Positions 1-52,494 of a stretch of DNA of 64,000 nt are shown piece by piece. The stretch lies in assembly GCF_003018235.1 (NCBI RefSeq), contig NZ_CP027437.1, one strand, 5' to 3'. The position numbers and the translations under genes are program-made. The notes below the pieces were generated by a model. The model worked only from the letters and a program-made list of their open reading frames with translations, made no database searches and was not told where the DNA came from. The number at the start of each line of letters is the position of its first letter. The first letter of the stretch is position 1. This DNA comes from Escherichia coli (GTDB taxonomy: Bacteria > Pseudomonadota > Gammaproteobacteria > Enterobacterales > Enterobacteriaceae).

Positions 1-203
<203 letters not shown>

Positions 204-4533: not shown

Positions 4534-4610
4534 GGCTACGTAGCTCAGTTGGTTAGAGCACATCACTCATAATGATGGGGTCACAGGTTCGAATCCCGTC
4601 GTAGCCACCA
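4534..4610 (+). tRNA. metT: tRNA-Met (elongator, anticodon CAU)
   Basis: 77-nt cloverleaf GGCTACGTAGCTCAGTTGG...CCA; anticodon loop CTCATAA. Confidence 0.93.
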
Positions 4611-4620
4611 TCTTTTTTTT

Positions 4621-4705
4621 GCGGGAGTGGCGAAATTGGTAGACGCACCAGATTTAGGTTCTGGCGCCGCAAGGTGTGCGAGTTCAAGTCTCGCCTCCCG
4701 CACCA
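4621..4705 (+). tRNA. leuW: tRNA-Leu (anticodon UAG)
   Basis: 85-nt class II tRNA GCGGGAGTGGCGAAATTGGTAGACGC...; anticodon loop TTTAGGT; ends CCA. Confidence 0.92.
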
Positions 4706-4728
4706 TTCACCAGAAAGCGTTGTACGGA

Positions 4729-4803
4729 TGGGGTATCGCCAAGCGGTAAGGCACCGGTTTTTGATACCGGCATTCCCTGGTTCGAATCCAGGTACCCCAG
4801 CCA
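4729..4803 (+). tRNA. glnU: tRNA-Gln (anticodon UUG)
   Basis: 75-nt TGGGGTATCGCCAAGCGGTAAGG...; anticodon loop TTTTGAT; ends CCA. Confidence 0.92.
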
Positions 4804-4837
4804 TCTTCTTCGAGTAAGCGGTTCACCGCCCGGTTAT

Positions 4838-4912
4838 TGGGGTATCGCCAAGCGGTAAGGCACCGGTTTTTGATACCGGCATTCCCTGGTTCGAATCCAG
4901 GTACCCCAGCCA
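4838..4912 (+). tRNA. glnW: tRNA-Gln (anticodon UUG)
   Basis: Identical copy of the preceding tRNA-Gln(UUG). Confidence 0.92.
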
Positions 4913-4927
4913 TCGAAGAAACAATCT

Positions 4928-5004
4928 GGCTACGTAGCTCAGTTGGTTAGAGCACATCACTCATAATGATGGGGTCACAGGTTCGAATCCCGTCGTAGCC
5001 ACCA
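4928..5004 (+). tRNA. metU: tRNA-Met (elongator, anticodon CAU)
   Basis: Identical copy of the tRNA-Met at 4534..4610. Confidence 0.92.
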
Positions 5005-5051
5005 AATTCTGAATGTGTCGAATATGTTCGGCAAATTCAAAAACCAATTTG

Positions 5052-5126
5052 TTGGGGTATCGCCAAGCGGTAAGGCACCGGATTCTGATTCCGGCATTCC
5101 GAGGTTCGAATCCTCGTACCCCAGCC
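5052..5126 (+). tRNA. glnV: tRNA-Gln (anticodon CUG)
   Basis: 75-nt tRNA-Gln variant with anticodon loop TTCTGAT. Confidence 0.92.
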
Positions 5127-5164
5127 AATTTATTCAAGACGCTTACCTTGTAAGTGCACCCAGT

Positions 5165-5239
5165 TGGGGTATCGCCAAGCGGTAAGGCACCGGATTCTGA
5201 TTCCGGCATTCCGAGGTTCGAATCCTCGTACCCCAGCCA
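5165..5239 (+). tRNA. glnX: tRNA-Gln (anticodon CUG)
   Basis: Identical copy of the preceding tRNA-Gln(CUG). Confidence 0.92.
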
Positions 5240-10787: not shown

Positions 10788-12326
10788 ATGGCTTTTGCCT
10801 CATTAATTGAACGCCAGCGCATTCGCCTGCTGCTGGCGTTATTATTCGGTGCCTGCGGAACGCTGGCCTTCTCTCCTTACGACGTCTGGCCTGCGGCGAT
10901 TATTTCGCTGATGGGGCTTCAGGCGCTGACCTTTAACCGCCGTCCACTCCAGTCTGCCGCTATTGGCTTTTGCTGGGGATTTGGCCTCTTTGGCAGCGGT
11001 ATTAACTGGGTCTATGTCAGCATCGCGACCTTTGGCGGAATGCCTGGCCCGGTTAACATCTTCCTGGTGGTACTGCTGGCGGCGTATTTGTCGCTGTATA
11101 CCGGATTATTTGCTGGCGTGCTGTCGCGTCTGTGGCCGAAAACCACCTGGCTGCGCGTGGCGATTGCCGCCCCTGCTCTCTGGCAAGTGACCGAGTTTCT
11201 GCGCGGTTGGGTGCTGACTGGTTTCCCGTGGTTACAGTTCGGCTATAGCCAGATTGATGGCCCGTTAAAAGGGCTGGCACCGATAATGGGCGTGGAAGCC
11301 ATTAACTTCCTGCTAATGATGGTTAGCGGCCTGCTGGCACTGGCGTTGGTTAAACGCAACTGGCGTCCGATGGTGGTGGCCGTCGTGCTGTTCGCCCTTC
11401 CCTTCCCGCTGCGTTACATCCAGTGGTTTACCCCGCAACCGGAGAAAACCATTCAGGTTTCGATGGTTCAGGGCGATATTCCGCAATCGCTGAAGTGGGA
11501 CGAAAGCCAGCTTCTTAATACGCTGAAAATTTATTACAACGCGACGGCACCGCTGATGGGCAAATCGTCGCTGATTATCTGGCCGGAGTCGGCGATAACC
11601 GATCTGGAAATTAATCAGCAACCGTTCCTCAAAGCACTGGACGGTGAGTTGCGTGATAAAGGTAGCTCGCTGGTAACCGGGATTGTCGACGCGCGTCTCA
11701 ATAAGCAGAACCGCTACGATACCTACAACACCATCATCACGCTGGGTAAAGGTGCACCGTACAGCTACGAATCAGCCGATCGCTATAACAAAAACCATCT
11801 GGTGCCGTTTGGCGAGTTTGTCCCGCTGGAGTCGATTCTGCGTCCGTTAGCGCCGTTCTTTGATCTGCCGATGTCGTCGTTCAGCCGTGGGCCATATATC
11901 CAGCCACCGCTGTCGGTAAACGGTATTGAGCTTACTGCGGCTATTTGCTACGAGATCATTCTTGGCGAGCAAGTGCGTGATAACTTCCGCCCGGATACCG
12001 ATTATCTGCTGACTATCTCCAACGATGCATGGTTTGGTAAGTCTATTGGTCCATGGCAGCACTTCCAGATGGCGCGAATGCGTGCGCTGGAGCTGGCGCG
12101 CCCGCTGCTACGCAGCACCAACAACGGCATTACGGCGGTGATTGGCCCGCAGGGTGAGATTCAGGCGATGATCCCGCAATTCACCCGCGAGGTGTTAACC
12201 ACTAACGTGACACCGACCACCGGACTCACACCGTACGCACGTACCGGCAACTGGCCGCTGTGGGTACTGACGGCACTGTTTGGTTTTGCTGCTGTGCTGA
12301 TGAGCCTGCGTCAACGACGTAAATAA
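10788..12326 (+). CDS. lnt: Apolipoprotein N-acyltransferase
   Basis: 512-aa ORF with N-terminal multi-TM region and C-terminal nitrilase-like domain. Confidence 0.95.
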
Positions 12327-12372
12327 TCCCTTCTTATCGTGCCGGAATACATCCCGTATTTCGGCACGCTCA

Positions 12373-12408
12373 CCGGATGCGGCATCAGTGCGTTATCCGG
12401 ATTACAAA
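12373..12408. repeat. REP-like palindromic element
   Basis: accggatgcggcatcagtgcgttatccggattac resembles the REP consensus GCCGGATGCGGCG...TTATCCGGCCTAC. Confidence 0.45.
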
Positions 12409-12722
12409 ATTCCCCTATCCAACTTTGGCACATCTATTGCTTTGTTATACAAGGCAAAGCTTGAACCAGCATCAGTACAACCCGGTTGCACCACAGCAAT
12501 CCACGGGTAGCACCAAAAGAGTGCATTTTAAGAATTTTGCTTCGGAATGGTGCGGCGCATCTCGCAAAAACAAACAATAAAACAGCAATATCTTTACATT
12601 TAGCCAAACTAAATGTTACCTAACAAGCACAACACTGCACAATAAAGTTGCAGATGATAACAACACAAACACTCACAACGGGTATCCATGCGTTCTTAAC
12701 GCAGAAGATAAAGGAGTTGGAT

Positions 12723-13631
12723 ATGCAATTACGTAAACCTGCCACAGCAATCCTGGCCTTGGCGCTTTCCGCAGGACTGGCACAGGCAGATGACGCCGCC
12801 CCGGCAGCGGGCAGTACGCTGGACAAAATCGCCAAAAACGGTGTGATTGTCGTCGGTCACCGTGAATCTTCAGTACCTTTCTCTTATTACGACAATCAGC
12901 AAAAAGTGGTGGGTTACTCGCAGGATTACTCCAACGCCATTGTTGAAGCAGTGAAAAAGAAACTCAACAAACCGGACTTGCAGGTAAAACTGATTCCGAT
13001 CACCTCACAAAACCGTATTCCACTGCTGCAAAACGGCACTTTCGATTTTGAATGTGGTTCTACCACCAACAACGTCGAACGCCAAAAACAGGCGGCTTTC
13101 TCTGACACTATTTTCGTGGTCGGTACGCGCCTTCTGACCAAAAAGGGCGGCGATATCAAAGATTTTGCCGACCTGAAAGGCAAAGCCGTAGTCGTCACTT
13201 CCGGCACTACCTCTGAAGTTTTGCTCAACAAACTGAATGAAGAGCAAAAAATGAATATGCGAATTATCAGCGCCAAAGATCACGGTGACTCTTTCCGTAC
13301 CCTGGAAAGCGGTCGTGCCGTTGCCTTTATGATGGATGATGCTCTGCTGGCTGGTGAACGTGCGAAAGCGAAGAAACCAGACAACTGGGAAATCGTCGGC
13401 AAGCCGCAGTCTCAGGAAGCCTACGGTTGCATGTTGCGTAAAGACGATCCGCAGTTCAAAAAGCTGATGGATGACACCATCGCGCAGGTGCAGACCTCCG
13501 GTGAAGCGGAAAAATGGTTTGATAAATGGTTCAAAAATCCAATTCCGCCGAAAAACCTGAACATGAATTTCGAACTGTCAGACGAAATGAAAGCACTGTT
13601 CAAAGAACCGAATGACAAGGCACTGAACTAA
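12723..13631 (+). CDS. gltI: Periplasmic glutamate/aspartate-binding protein
   Basis: 302-aa protein starting MQLRKPATAILALALSAGLAQA (signal peptide) after AAGGAG SD; track ORF 12648 is an N-terminal extension. Confidence 0.93.
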   Translation: MQLRKPATAILALALSAGLAQADDAAPAAGSTLDKIAKNGVIVVGHRESSVPFSYYDNQQKVVGYSQDYSNAIVEAVKKKLNKPDLQVKLIPITSQNRIPLLQNGTFDFECGSTTNNVERQKQAAFSDTIFVVGTRLLTKKGGDIKDFADLKGKAVVVTSGTTSEVLLNKLNEEQKMNMRIISAKDHGDSFRTLESGRAVAFMMDDALLAGERAKAKKPDNWEIVGKPQSQEAYGCMLRKDDPQFKKLMDDTIAQVQTSGEAEKWFDKWFKNPIPPKNLNMNFELSDEMKALFKEPNDKALN

Positions 13632-13788
13632 TTACAAGAACCAGGGGCGGAAATTCCAGCCCTCTCGATTGTTACGTAGCACGGACAGACTATACGCCTG
13701 ATGGTCGTTCCCCATCGGGCCTGAAAACCGCAATACGCTGGGTAACAATCTTCGAGGGTAGCAGTTAACGCTGCTACCCTCTTTTTTC
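13632..13788 (+). ncRNA. sroC: SroC-like small RNA from the gltI-gltJ spacer
   Basis: Location between gltI stop and gltJ start; 9-bp stem hairpin GGGTAGCAG/CTGCTACCC (13756-13779) followed by TCTTTTTT; 5' end is approximate. Confidence 0.55.
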
Positions 13789-13800
13789 TGGAGTAGATTT

Positions 13801-14541
13801 ATGTCTATAGACTGGAACTGGGGTATTTTTTTACAACAAGCCCCGTTCGGCAACACCACCTATCTTGGTTGGATCTGGAGTGGTTTTCAGGTGACGATCG
13901 CTTTGTCGATCTGCGCCTGGATTATCGCTTTCCTCGTCGGTTCATTTTTCGGCATTTTACGTACCGTTCCAAACCGTTTTCTCTCCGGTCTGGGTACGTT
14001 GTATGTCGAACTGTTCCGCAACGTGCCGTTGATTGTGCAATTCTTTACCTGGTATCTGGTGATCCCGGAGTTGCTGCCAGAGAAAATCGGCATGTGGTTT
14101 AAGGCCGAGCTGGATCCCAATATTCAGTTTTTCCTTTCATCCATGCTCTGCCTTGGGCTGTTTACCGCCGCCCGTGTTTGCGAACAGGTACGCGCCGCGA
14201 TTCAGTCGCTGCCGCGTGGGCAGAAGAATGCCGCGCTGGCGATGGGTCTGACACTACCGCAGGCTTACCGCTACGTACTGCTGCCTAATGCTTATCGCGT
14301 TATCGTCCCGCCGATGACCTCAGAGATGATGAACCTGGTGAAAAACTCCGCCATCGCCTCGACTATCGGTCTGGTGGATATGGCGGCGCAGGCGGGTAAA
14401 TTGCTCGATTACTCGGCCCACGCCTGGGAGTCGTTTACCGCCATTACGCTGGCGTATGTATTGATTAACGCTTTTATCATGCTGGTGATGACGCTGGTTG
14501 AACGTAAAGTTCGCCTGCCCGGCAACATGGGGGGCAAATAA
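13801..14541 (+). CDS. gltJ: Glutamate/aspartate ABC transporter permease
   Basis: 246-aa polytopic membrane ORF downstream of gltI. Confidence 0.93.
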
Positions 14542-15215
14542 TGTACGAGTTTGACTGGAGTTCCATTGTCCCTTCCCTGCCATATCTGCTGGATGGGCTG
14601 GTGATCACCCTGAAAATCACCGTCACGGCAGTGGTGATTGGTATTTTATGGGGCACCATGCTGGCGGTGATGCGCTTATCCAGCTTTGCGCCCGTAGCGT
14701 GGTTTGCCAAAGCCTACGTTAACGTATTCCGCTCGATTCCTTTAGTTATGGTTTTGCTGTGGTTTTACCTGATCGTGCCGGGTTTTCTGCAAAACGTGCT
14801 GGGATTATCGCCAAAAAATGATATCCGTTTAATTTCGGCAATGGTGGCGTTTTCGATGTTTGAAGCGGCCTACTATTCAGAGATTATCCGTGCCGGTATT
14901 CAAAGTATTTCCCGTGGTCAGTCGAGCGCCGCGCTGGCGTTGGGGATGACTCACTGGCAGTCGATGAAACTGATTATTCTGCCGCAGGCGTTCCGCGCGA
15001 TGGTGCCGCTGCTGCTCACTCAGGGCATCGTACTGTTCCAGGATACCTCACTGGTGTATGTGTTATCTCTGGCCGATTTCTTCCGTACCGCTTCAACCAT
15101 TGGTGAGCGTGATGGTACGCAGGTCGAGATGATCCTGTTTGCCGGATTTGTTTATTTCGTTATTAGCCTTAGCGCGTCGTTGTTGGTCAGCTACTTGAAA
15201 AGAAGGACAGCATAA
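14541..15215 (+). CDS. gltK: Glutamate/aspartate ABC transporter permease
   Basis: 224-aa membrane ORF; start overlaps gltJ stop. Confidence 0.93.
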
Positions 15216-15940
15216 TGATTACCCTGAAAAATGTTTCAAAATGGTATGGTCACTTTCAGGTGCTGACCGACTGCTCAACCGAAGTGAAAAAAGGCGAAGT
15301 GGTGGTGGTTTGCGGCCCGTCTGGTTCCGGCAAATCAACGCTGATTAAAACCGTCAACGGCCTCGAACCGGTGCAGCAAGGTGAAATTACCGTCGATGGT
15401 ATCGTGGTTAACGATAAGAAAACCGATCTGGCAAAGCTGCGTTCCCGCGTCGGGATGGTGTTCCAGCATTTCGAGTTGTTCCCCCATTTGTCGATTATCG
15501 AAAACCTGACCCTGGCGCAGGTGAAAGTGCTTAAACGCGATAAAGCGCCCGCTCGTGAAAAAGCATTGAAATTGCTGGAGCGCGTGGGACTTTCCGCACA
15601 TGCCAATAAATTTCCGGCGCAGCTTTCCGGCGGTCAGCAGCAGCGTGTGGCGATCGCTCGCGCATTGTGTATGGATCCTATTGCCATGCTGTTCGACGAA
15701 CCGACATCGGCGCTGGATCCGGAGATGATCAACGAAGTGCTGGACGTGATGGTGGAACTGGCGAACGAAGGAATGACCATGATGGTGGTGACCCACGAAA
15801 TGGGCTTTGCCCGTAAAGTGGCGAATCGGGTGATCTTTATGGATGAGGGTAAAATTGTCGAAGACTCGCCGAAAGATGCGTTCTTCGATGATCCGAAATC
15901 GGACCGCGCAAAAGACTTCCTCGCGAAAATCCTGCATTAA
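15215..15940 (+). CDS. gltL: Glutamate/aspartate ABC transporter ATP-binding protein
   Basis: 241-aa ORF with Walker [13 protein letters not shown] signature LSGGQQQR, Walker [12 protein letters not shown]. Confidence 0.95.
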
Positions 15941-16057
15941 TCACTCTGGCGCGCATACCCAAGTGCGCGCCATCTCACGCTTTATCGTTTCGCTCCTCGT
16001 ATCTGTTACATCCTGGCGTTACCCTTGTCGCAAAGAAGCACACAACAAGGAGCAACA

Positions 16058-16993
16058 ATGGCACTGCCAATTCTGTTAGATTGCGACCCAGGTCATGATG
16101 ACGCTATCGCAATAGTTCTCGCCCTCGCCTCACCAGAGCTTGATGTCAAAGCAATTACGTCTTCCGCCGGAAACCAGACACCAGAAAAAACCTTACGCAA
16201 TGTTCTGCGTATGCTGACCTTGCTTAATCGCACCGATATTCCGGTGGCAGGCGGCGCGGTAAAACCGTTAATGCGTGAGTTGATTATCGCGGACAATGTG
16301 CACGGTGAAAGCGGTCTCGACGGCCCGGCATTACCGGAACCGACGTTCGCACCGCAAAACTGTACGGCGGTGGAGCTGATGGCGAAAACGCTGCGTGAAA
16401 GTGAGGAACCTGTCACGATTGTGTCTACCGGACCGCAAACTAACGTTGCCTTGCTGCTCAATAGCCATCCGGAACTGCATAGCAAAATCGCCCGTATCGT
16501 GATTATGGGCGGCGCAATGGGGCTTGGTAACTGGACGCCAGCCGCCGAGTTTAATATTTATGTTGACCCGGAAGCGGCAGAAATTGTTTTCCAGTCAGGG
16601 ATCCCGGTGGTGATGGCCGGTCTGGATGTTACTCATAAAGCGCAAATCCACGTTGAAGACACCGAGCGTTTCCGCGCGATTGGCAACCCTGTTTCAACCA
16701 TTGTTGCCGAACTGCTGGATTTCTTCCTCGAATATCATAAAGACGAAAAATGGGGTTTTGTCGGCGCACCGCTGCATGACCCATGCACCATCGCCTGGCT
16801 GTTGAAACCGGAGTTGTTTACCACTGTTGAGCGCTGGGTTGGCGTGGAAACACAAGGGAAATATACCCAGGGTATGACGGTTGTTGATTATTATTATCTG
16901 ACTGGCAATAAACCGAATGCCACTGTAATGGTCGATGTTGATCGTCAGGGCTTTGTTGATTTACTGGCTGATCGTCTGAAATTTTACGCTTAA
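16058..16993 (+). CDS. rihA: Pyrimidine-specific ribonucleoside hydrolase
   Basis: 311-aa protein [16 protein letters not shown] (nucleoside hydrolase DxDxxxDD motif); AAGGAG SD; track ORF 16025 is an extension. Confidence 0.93.
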
Positions 16994-34993: not shown

Positions 34994-35026
34994 AAAAAAA
35001 ACCCGCTGATTAAGCGGGTTTTGAAT
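34994..35026. terminator. Bidirectional intrinsic terminator between convergent crcB and cspE
   Basis: AAAAAAAACCCGCTGATTAAGCGGGTTTTG hairpin flanked by A- and T-runs. Confidence 0.75.
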
Positions 35027-35041
35027 TCTTGCTGACGTATC

Positions 35042-35251
35042 TTACAGAGCGATTACGTTTGCAGCAGAAGGGCCTTTGGCACCGTTAGTGATTTCGAACT
35101 CTACGCGCTGACCTTCAGCAAGAGTTTTAAAACCATTAGTCTGGATTGCAGAGAAGTGTACGAACACGTCTTTGCTGCCGTCTTCCGGAGTAATGAAACC
35201 GAATCCTTTGGACTCATTAAACCACTTAACGTTACCTTTAATCTTAGACAT
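35042..35251 (-). CDS. cspE: Cold-shock-domain protein CspE
   Basis: 69-aa protein [20 protein letters not shown] (RNP1 motif); track ORF extends 28 codons upstream. Confidence 0.95.
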
Positions 35252-35425
35252 CAAAATTACCTTTACATGAAAAATAGACACAAATGCTGTGTCGGTTACC
35301 AGTACACCAATTGTGGTACGCTTTGTCCAGTGCAACTTTACTAAAAAGTGATAAAAGTCGCGTTATTTTTGATGTTAATTATTTTACTCATTGATTTTAA
35401 AGAGTTTACTAAAATTTCATTTGTC

Positions 35426-47460: not shown

Positions 47461-47496
47461 GCCCGCCAGGTAAGCCCACCTGGCGGGCTTTTTTAT
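47461..47496 (+). terminator. Intrinsic terminator after citT
   Basis: GCCCGCCAGGTAAGCCCACCTGGCGGGC followed by TTTTTTAT. Confidence 0.8.
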
Positions 47497-48349: not shown

Positions 48350-48496
48350 TCCTCTGATTTACAAAACACGCTAATTCGTCTTCCATAAACCATGACGATT
48401 AAGATTTATACATAATGCGCTACATTGAGGAATTCCCTGAATGTGACGCAAATCACTTCAAAGAGTGAGCAACAGTCAGTATCATCATGTGAGTTA

Positions 48497-48530
48497 AACC
48501 CTCGCCGCCTGACGGTGAGGGTTTTCTTTT
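48497..48530 (+). terminator. Hairpin plus T-run in the rna-rnk spacer
   Basis: AACCCTCGCC-GCCTGAC-GGTGAGGGTT followed by TTCTTTTG, about 50 bp upstream of rnk ATG. Confidence 0.55.
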
Positions 48531-48578
48531 GGGTATGTTTATCTGCGACACTCGCAGTACCGACGACATGGAGTAAAA

Positions 48579-52193: not shown

Positions 52194-52494
52194 CTATACT
52201 TCCTCCGTGTTTTCGATGAGATGTAAGGTAACCAATTTTTGCCGATTCGGCTAATGCGTTTCCATTATCAAATCGATAAGTTTTACCTTACAACCTTCGT
52301 AAGACAACTTTGTGAACTTTGCACCGCCAGCGGCGATAAAAAGTAAAATGGCCCCCTTTCCAGGTGACCGTGTAATCTGAACTACCCTTTGGTATCTTCA
52401 GCGCCTGCCTGCAGGCTGAGGTGTTGCCCTTACAAATGCAACAACGACATGGATTACAACACCCTCATAAACAAAGGGCAATCACCTGATCTAA

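Follow-up and report, generated by a model that had tools for sequence, protein, structure and literature searches.

The gltI-gltJ spacer of an Escherichia coli genome and the small RNA SroC

The 64,000-nt stretch of Escherichia coli DNA that was analysed (the window) contains a spacer between gltI and gltJ that ends in a hairpin followed by a T-run. An initial annotation, made from the letters alone, assigned this spacer to SroC, the small RNA (sRNA) released from the gltIJKL transcript. The question raised by this locus was whether the spacer encodes this RNA or whether its hairpin and structured sequence have to be explained in another way.

Identity and position of SroC in the glt operon

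A covariance-model scan of the whole window with Rfam 15 yielded a match to RF00369 (sroC) at 13627-13789 on the plus strand, with 174.8 bits (E = 7.4e-37) against a gathering score of 45 bits and with model positions 1-163 of 163 aligned. The matched segment was found to be identical at 163 of 163 positions to the E. coli K-12 ncRNA gene sroC, b4763 (NC_000913.3 686681-686843). The assignment to SroC was thus borne out both by the covariance-model search, which had been suggested as a check, and by this identity. Therefore, 13627-13789 (+) encodes SroC, a known sRNA that associates with Hfq and is derived from the 3' end of the gltI mRNA. This reading is hardly in doubt; the same degree of confidence was given to the whole explanation, identity together with the mechanism proposed below, and nothing was found that contradicts it. 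The locus is arranged as follows.

12647-12680, plus strand: C/A-rich element in the leader of gltI, with complementarity to R1, the G/U-rich region of GcvB
12723-13631, plus strand: gltI, periplasmic glutamate/aspartate-binding protein, the parental mRNA of SroC (Pfam SBP_bac_3, 6e-29; K-12 gltI is 909 nt)
13627-13789, plus strand: SroC sRNA, 163 nt by the K-12 annotation, bounded by a processing site within the last nucleotides of gltI (5' end) and by the terminator T-run (3' end)
13790-15940, plus strand: gltJ Shine-Dalgarno sequence and gltJKL, expressed only from transcripts reading through the SroC terminator (ORFs, Pfam and K-12 annotation)
13801-14541, plus strand: gltJ (Pfam BPD_transp_1)
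14541-15215, plus strand: gltK (Pfam BPD_transp_1)
15215-15940, plus strand: gltL (Pfam ABC_tran)

The gene order gltI-gltJ-gltK-gltL was obtained from the ORFs, the Pfam domains and the RefSeq names, the flanking genes being annotated as gltI and gltJ in E. coli genomes that are 100% identical here; the hairpin does lie inside an ABC-transporter operon just before gltJ, as had been stated. The interval originally proposed, 13632-13800, equals the whole gltI-gltJ spacer, but the RNA itself occupies 13627-13789, with its 5' end in the gltI coding sequence and its 3' end at about 13789. SroC comprises the last 5 nt of gltI and the adjoining spacer and stops 11 nt short of the gltJ ATG, directly before the gltJ Shine-Dalgarno sequence GGAG (13790-13793); in K-12, sroC likewise overlaps the last 5 nt of gltI and ends 11 nt before gltJ. 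The position of the mature 5' end carries an uncertainty of about 3 nt, since the K-12 annotation places it at 13627 and the Salmonella numbering implies approximately 13624. Of 5426 complete E. coli genomes, 5421 had the spacer between annotated gltI and gltJ, 5371 of them with at least 99% identity.

A promoter scan of the plus strand across 12300-16200 gave no sigma-70-like site, a weak negative that agrees with an origin by processing. A discrete SroC transcript in E. coli has been detected by northern blots (PMC10250213), and the transcript is also credited to Vogel et al. (2003) where that work is cited in PMC10250213 and PMC9438474.

Upstream of the operon, positions 12659-12668 of the gltI leader form a 10-nt perfect complementary run with GcvB 73-82, and the energy of the local duplex was -33.9 kcal/mol. 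The C/A-rich leader site is where GcvB represses gltI, as established with the delta-CA mutant (PMC4474525). The lnt-gltI intergenic region (12327-12722, approximately 400 bp) contains no insertion sequence; in MG1655, IS5D (insH3) lies between gltI and lnt, so that the window comes from an E. coli strain other than MG1655.

SroC is already known: it is annotated in the reference genome and curated in Rfam, and its mechanism has been dissected, so that nothing in the element is new and its importance as a finding is low. It is a useful positive control, being a textbook mRNA-derived sponge by which a single amino-acid transporter operon is tied to the GcvB regulon as a whole. A processed intra-operon sRNA proved recognisable from raw sequence.

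Several further RNA features were recorded elsewhere in the window. A hairpin comparable to that of the spacer is located at 47461-47494 (+); it reads GCCCGCCAGGT-AAGCCC-ACCTGGCGGGC followed by TTTTTT and is presumably a strong intrinsic terminator. The Rfam model of the enterobacterial rnk leader was matched over its full length at 48425-48533 (+) with 124.9 bits (gathering score 50). The cspA thermoregulator model matched 34994-35352 (-) with 123 bits (gathering score 78), the 5' part being poorly aligned, and its genomic position makes the cspE paralogue more probable than cspA. Seven tRNA genes, including repeated near-identical copies, are clustered within approximately 700 bp at 4534-5236 (+). 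The match to the STnc70 sRNA at 52338-52431 (-) was marginal (44.1 bits; gathering score 40), with model positions 1-149 compressed into just 94 nt, and may represent a partial or degenerate copy. Among relatives, the E. albertii locus L008 contains an Rfam match to the ES036 (CssrF) sRNA at 42-84 (-), with 45.5 bits against a gathering score of 37.6, several kb from the glt operon.

Fold, GcvB pairing sites and conservation

The 163-nt segment had a minimum free energy (MFE) of -66.3 kcal/mol (z = -6.5), and none of 200 shuffled sequences was as stable. The following elements were distinguished within it.

13644-13663, plus strand: stem-loop 1 (GGGGCGG...CCAGCCC), from the MFE structure
13667-13750, plus strand: stem-loop 2, a large interrupted domain with both GcvB contact sites, from the MFE structure (helices 2-6)
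13683-13690, plus strand: contact with GcvB within the internal bulge, GGACAGAC (SroC 57-64), pairing with GcvB 156-163
13705-13711, plus strand: contact with GcvB at the stem-loop 2 tip, UCGUUCC (TCGTTCC in the DNA; SroC 79-85), pairing with GcvB 13-19
13747-13753, plus strand: AATCTTC block, invariant or near-invariant, directly before the terminator; part of it closes the base of stem-loop 2
13754-13787, plus strand: intrinsic (Rho-independent) terminator, with the hairpin at 13754-13781 and T6 at 13782-13787; the 3' end of SroC and of monocistronic gltI

The MFE structure of the window segment was projected onto an alignment of 50 distinct full-length-type spacers from other species (A1). 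Standard pairs were formed in 87.9% of the alignment cells, compared with 40-52% when the partners were slid by 1-3 columns. Changes on both sides were observed in 22 of 48 pairs, and the observed covariation score was reached by none of 500 column shuffles. In helix 1 (stem-loop 1), 85.7% of the cells were paired and three pairs had changed on both sides; in helix 6, the upper stem of stem-loop 2, the corresponding share was 94.9%, with compensatory changes in seven of nine pairs. The 3-bp MFE helix over GGACAGAC was paired in just 48% of the cells, and this weak pairing fits the accessible internal bulge revealed by probing (PMC4474525). Within the AATCTTC block, T123-T126 were invariant and A121, A122 and C127 were conserved in at least 90% of the sequences. 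The SroC secondary structure, consisting of stem-loop 1, the long stem-loop 2 with its internal bulge and the terminator hairpin, is conserved.

Exact complementary runs and local duplexes were computed with the K-12 gcvB sequence. The earlier suggestion to look for a GcvB-complementary stretch within 13632-13755 led to two: GGACAGAC at 13683-13690 is perfectly complementary to E. coli GcvB over 8 nt, with -15.3 kcal/mol for the local duplex, and UCGUUCC at 13705-13711 is so over 7 nt, the two facing G160 and G14, respectively. They are separated by 14 nt in SroC and by approximately 136 nt in GcvB, as in the published geometry, in which sites 7 or 8 nt long lie at a distance of 14 nt (PMC4474525) and their GcvB partners at one of 137 nt (PMC10250213). 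The sites are named here by sequence and GcvB partner, the labels BS1 and BS2 being inconsistent between sections of PMC4474525. Across the 50 species, SroC 58-64 were invariant at the bulge site and C80-C86 at the loop site.

Taken alone, the complementarity to GcvB was not significant: a run of at least 8 nt occurred in 29% of dinucleotide shuffles of SroC, and two runs of at least 7 nt occurred in 43%. Since complementarity of this kind is common in shuffles, the proof of pairing rests on the published compensatory-mutation and half-life experiments, and the SroC sequence is consistent with the GcvB interaction rather than being an independent proof of it. In Salmonella, the compensatory mutations combined SroC C63 with GcvB G160 (G160C) and SroC C87 with GcvB G14 (G14C) (PMC4474525). 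The equivalents of these SroC residues in the window are 13686 for C63 and 13710 for C87, the Salmonella numbering being offset by 3 nt from that of K-12.

Orthologous loci were gathered by means of a degenerate pattern covering gltJ codons 1-8, an anchor that was used because it avoids selecting on the SroC sequence itself. This yielded 120 loci from Enterobacterales and, between the gltI stop codon and gltJ, 112 complete spacers of 85-374 nt, which fell into five classes.

Class 1 (66 of 112): both GcvB sites 13-14 nt apart, the GGGTAGC...GCTACCC hairpin and a T-run 17-23 nt before gltJ; mainly Escherichia, Salmonella, Citrobacter, Enterobacter, Klebsiella, Kluyvera, Dickeya, Pectobacterium, Brenneria and others
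Class 2 (7 of 112): as class 1, with an insertion between the two GcvB sites; Erwinia, Pantoea and Winslowiella
Class 3 (13 of 112): both sites kept, with a different 3' part; mostly Serratia
Class 4 (23 of 112): the loop site alone kept, with a T-run usually directly after stem-loop 2; Yersinia, Photorhabdus, Providencia, Rahnella and others
Class 5 (3 of 112): neither site; Edwardsiella (2) and Serratia silvae (1)

The Rfam scores agreed with these classes. The sroC model scored above its threshold for Salmonella (187.6 bits), E. albertii (171.5 bits), Klebsiella (151.3 bits) and Dickeya (52.2 bits), and below it for the representatives of Yersinia, Serratia, Erwinia, Pantoea, Pectobacterium (a long spacer), Photorhabdus, Providencia, Rahnella, Hafnia, Moellerella, Enterobacillus and Edwardsiella. 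In the Yersinia spacer, the bulge site is decayed, the loop site is retained and a T-run follows straight after stem-loop 2. The truncated SroC homologue of Y. pestis was reported to be inactive and unable to regulate GcvB (PMC4474525), so that the form found here reproduces the phylogenetic pattern described in that work.

Long gltI-gltJ spacers of 284-374 nt were observed at seven loci from several species. In three Citrobacter genomes among them, approximately 126 nt are inserted between the gltI stop codon and the SroC body, and this insertion should change the precursor from which SroC is processed.

The terminator and rival explanations

The terminator reads GAGGGTAGCAGT-TAAC-GCTGCTACCCTC followed by TTTTTT (13754-13787). 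The perfect 9-bp stem initially reported at 13756-13779 is exactly present, 13756-13764 (GGGTAGCAG) pairing with 13771-13779 (CTGCTACCC), but the true hairpin is longer: two outer pairs (GA with TC) and one inner G-U pair extend this core to 12 bp at 13754-13781 (11 Watson-Crick pairs and one G-U) around a TAAC loop. Its predicted energy is -21.3 kcal/mol. Likewise, the tail TCTTTTTT is present at 13780-13787, but its TC pairs with the GA at 13754-13755, and the T-run proper is the T6 at 13782-13787. When a perfect stem of 9 bp or more, a loop of 3-8 nt and T6 within 2 nt were required together, the 64-kb window yielded two sites (13754 and 47461) and 40 dinucleotide-preserving shuffles of it yielded none. 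Therefore, the hairpin with its T6 is not a chance feature. That it would attenuate read-through into gltJKL, as was first proposed, agrees with the "leaky Rho-independent terminator" of the literature, at which monocistronic gltI and SroC are made alongside full-length gltIJKL (PMC4474525, Discussion).

The core of the terminator stem, GGGTAG/CTACCC, was invariant in the 50 species of the alignment, 9 of the 12 pairs of this helix (helix 7) never varying, and the neighbouring stems covaried. Such invariance of sequence is unusual for an intrinsic terminator. Variation was observed at the loop, where an insertion corresponding to 13763-13771 of the window occurred in E. coli, in E. albertii and, independently, in Kluyvera and lengthened the stem from 9 to 11-12 bp; the extended stem of E. 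albertii contains one C-A mismatch and has an energy of -14.6 kcal/mol. Furthermore, GcvB contains an internal hairpin, GGUAGCAAAGCUACC followed by U6 (K-12 gcvB, locus L002, 510-530), whose arms GGUAGC...GCUACC match those of the SroC terminator (13757-13778). The pattern GGTAGC-N(3-12)-GCTACC was found once in the window and in none of 100 shuffles. This likeness may be a coincidence, a shared recognition module or a sign of contact between the two hairpins.

These observations bear on the explanation that the structured spacer works mainly in cis, as a sensor (a riboswitch-like element or a binding site for a protein or RNA) that tunes termination before gltJ, the release of SroC being its regulated output. 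The constraint on GGGTAG/CTACCC and on AATCTTC across 50 species, unlike that on ordinary terminators and next to freely covarying stems, speaks for it, as does the match of the terminator arms to GGUAGCAAAGCUACC with its U6, and the same possibility was raised by the authors of PMC4474525. However, no other Rfam cis-regulatory family matched at the spacer, no alternative (antiterminator) pairing was identified, and the invariance would be equally accounted for by recognition by Hfq or RNase E or by pairing with other targets. Moreover, a sensor would supplement the function of SroC and not replace it. Apparently, this explanation is an unlikely one.

A narrower proposal, which we consider somewhat less likely still, is that the frequency of stopping before gltJ is set by a factor with sequence specificity or by RNA-RNA contact of the two look-alike hairpins, the one in GcvB (GGUAGC-AAA-GCUACC-U6) being an internal leaky terminator. 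In PMC4474525, conserved nucleotides outside the GcvB contacts were noted and regulated termination was a matter of speculation. If the proposal were true, the release of SroC, the GltI:GltJKL ratio and the level of GcvB would constitute a regulated switch, not a fixed leak. The invariance of the terminator is the sole thread of research value at this locus, and it bears on the question of the original authors whether the release of SroC is regulated.

The hairpin could also be regarded as just an attenuator within the operon, or a stabiliser of the 3' end, by which the amount of the binding protein GltI relative to the membrane components GltJKL is set, the spacer having no trans-acting RNA function. 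The terminator does lie between cistrons 1 and 2 of an operon for an ABC transporter, a place at which differential expression would be expected, and it yields an excess of monocistronic gltI mRNA (PMC4474525, Discussion). In that respect, attenuation belongs to the accepted picture and is no true alternative to it. As a complete account, it leaves unexplained approximately 125 nt of structured upstream sequence with covarying stems, as well as two GcvB-complementary sites that are invariant across 50 species. It was also already reported for Salmonella that point mutations at the equivalents of 13686 and 13710 alter the stability of GcvB at unchanged levels of gltI and gltJKL mRNA, and sroC point mutants with an intact terminator lose GcvB turnover (PMC4474525). 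Attenuation as the sole function of the spacer is therefore very improbable.

The reading of the spacer as coding for an antisense small protein, which would draw on a minus-strand ORF of 75 open codons with a GTG start (75 aa, 13632-13859), was rejected and is practically negligible, because this ORF has no Pfam match and runs antisense into gltJ, the indels of orthologous spacers are not multiples of three (lengths modulo 3 were distributed as 21/15/14), any antisense frame is open across the spacer in just 8 of 50 sequences, and the substitutions track RNA base-pair covariation and not codon periodicity.

Proposed mechanism and comparison with known systems

The preferred reading is that the spacer encodes SroC acting as a sponge of GcvB, and the following sequence of events is proposed. 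Transcription from a single gltIJKL promoter would halt in part at the terminator 13754-13787, giving monocistronic gltI mRNA, and the remainder would read through into gltJKL. With the site defined by Hfq, RNase E acting from the 5' side would trim the short transcript to a very stable SroC of approximately 160 nt with a 5' monophosphate. SroC would then pair with GcvB at the two short sites, GGACAGAC with 156-163 and UCGUUCC with 13-19, and this pairing would expose GcvB to RNase E, with SroC itself surviving. The loss of GcvB would de-repress many mRNAs for amino-acid and peptide transport, including gltI through the leader target at 12647-12680.

The identity, position, fold and terminator of SroC, its two conserved sites, the operon context and the gltI-leader target were determined in this analysis; the leakiness, the processing by RNase E, the dependence on Hfq, the decay of GcvB and the MgrR, fliE and flhBAE targets are derived from the literature. 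It was demonstrated there that the trimming of SroC by RNase E depends on the 5' end and needs Hfq for accuracy (PMC4474525). Hfq-dependent, RNase E-mediated destabilisation of GcvB in vivo has been published for Salmonella (PMC4474525) and for E. coli (PMC10250213). In Salmonella, the half-life of GcvB increased from 1.7 to more than 15 min in the sroC deletion strain or the double point mutant (PMC4474525). In E. coli, SroC shortened GcvB's half-life from more than 16 min to 3.8 min, and SroC itself had a half-life of more than 16 min (PMC10250213, Table 1); in a two-plasmid assay, the homologues from E. coli also proved functional (PMC4474525). Further actions of SroC are the sponging of MgrR and the repression of fliE and flhBAE (PMC9438474).

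The closest known system is SroC of K-12 and Salmonella (Miyakoshi, Chao and Vogel 2015), which shares the locus, the fold, the position of the terminator and the two GcvB sites 14 nt apart. The window sequence does not differ from that of K-12 SroC (163 of 163 nt identical), although the window strain, unlike MG1655, has no IS5 upstream of gltI. Compared with Salmonella and most Enterobacteriaceae, the terminator loop of E. coli carries a 7-nt insertion, by which the stem is lengthened from 9 to 12 bp and its predicted energy is changed from -13.1 to -21.3 kcal/mol.

Like CpxQ, SdhX, GlnZ, NarS and MalH, SroC is freed by RNase E from the 3' part of an mRNA whose intrinsic terminator it shares, and a 5' monophosphate and stability are common to all of them (PMC9438474, PMC10250213). 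However, SroC lies within an operon behind a leaky internal terminator and not at the operon end, and its main target is another sRNA rather than mRNAs. In pairing with an sRNA, lowering its activity and thereby creating cross-talk among its targets, SroC resembles the chbBC spacer acting on ChiX, 3'ETS-leuZ acting on RyhB and RybB, and the prophage-encoded AgvB acting on GcvB. SroC binds GcvB outside the mRNA-binding seed regions, at two distant sites and with RNase E-dependent decay (PMC4474525). Unlike SroC, AgvB was proposed to be a target mimic that competes without destabilising GcvB, and the decay of ChiX follows a route different from that of the SroC-driven decay of GcvB (PMC4474525).

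Finally, the truncated spacers of Yersinia, Photorhabdus, Providencia and Rahnella occupy the same locus and keep the tip of stem-loop 2 with the CGUUCC loop, but their bulge site is decayed and they score below the Rfam threshold, whereas the window carries the full-length active type.
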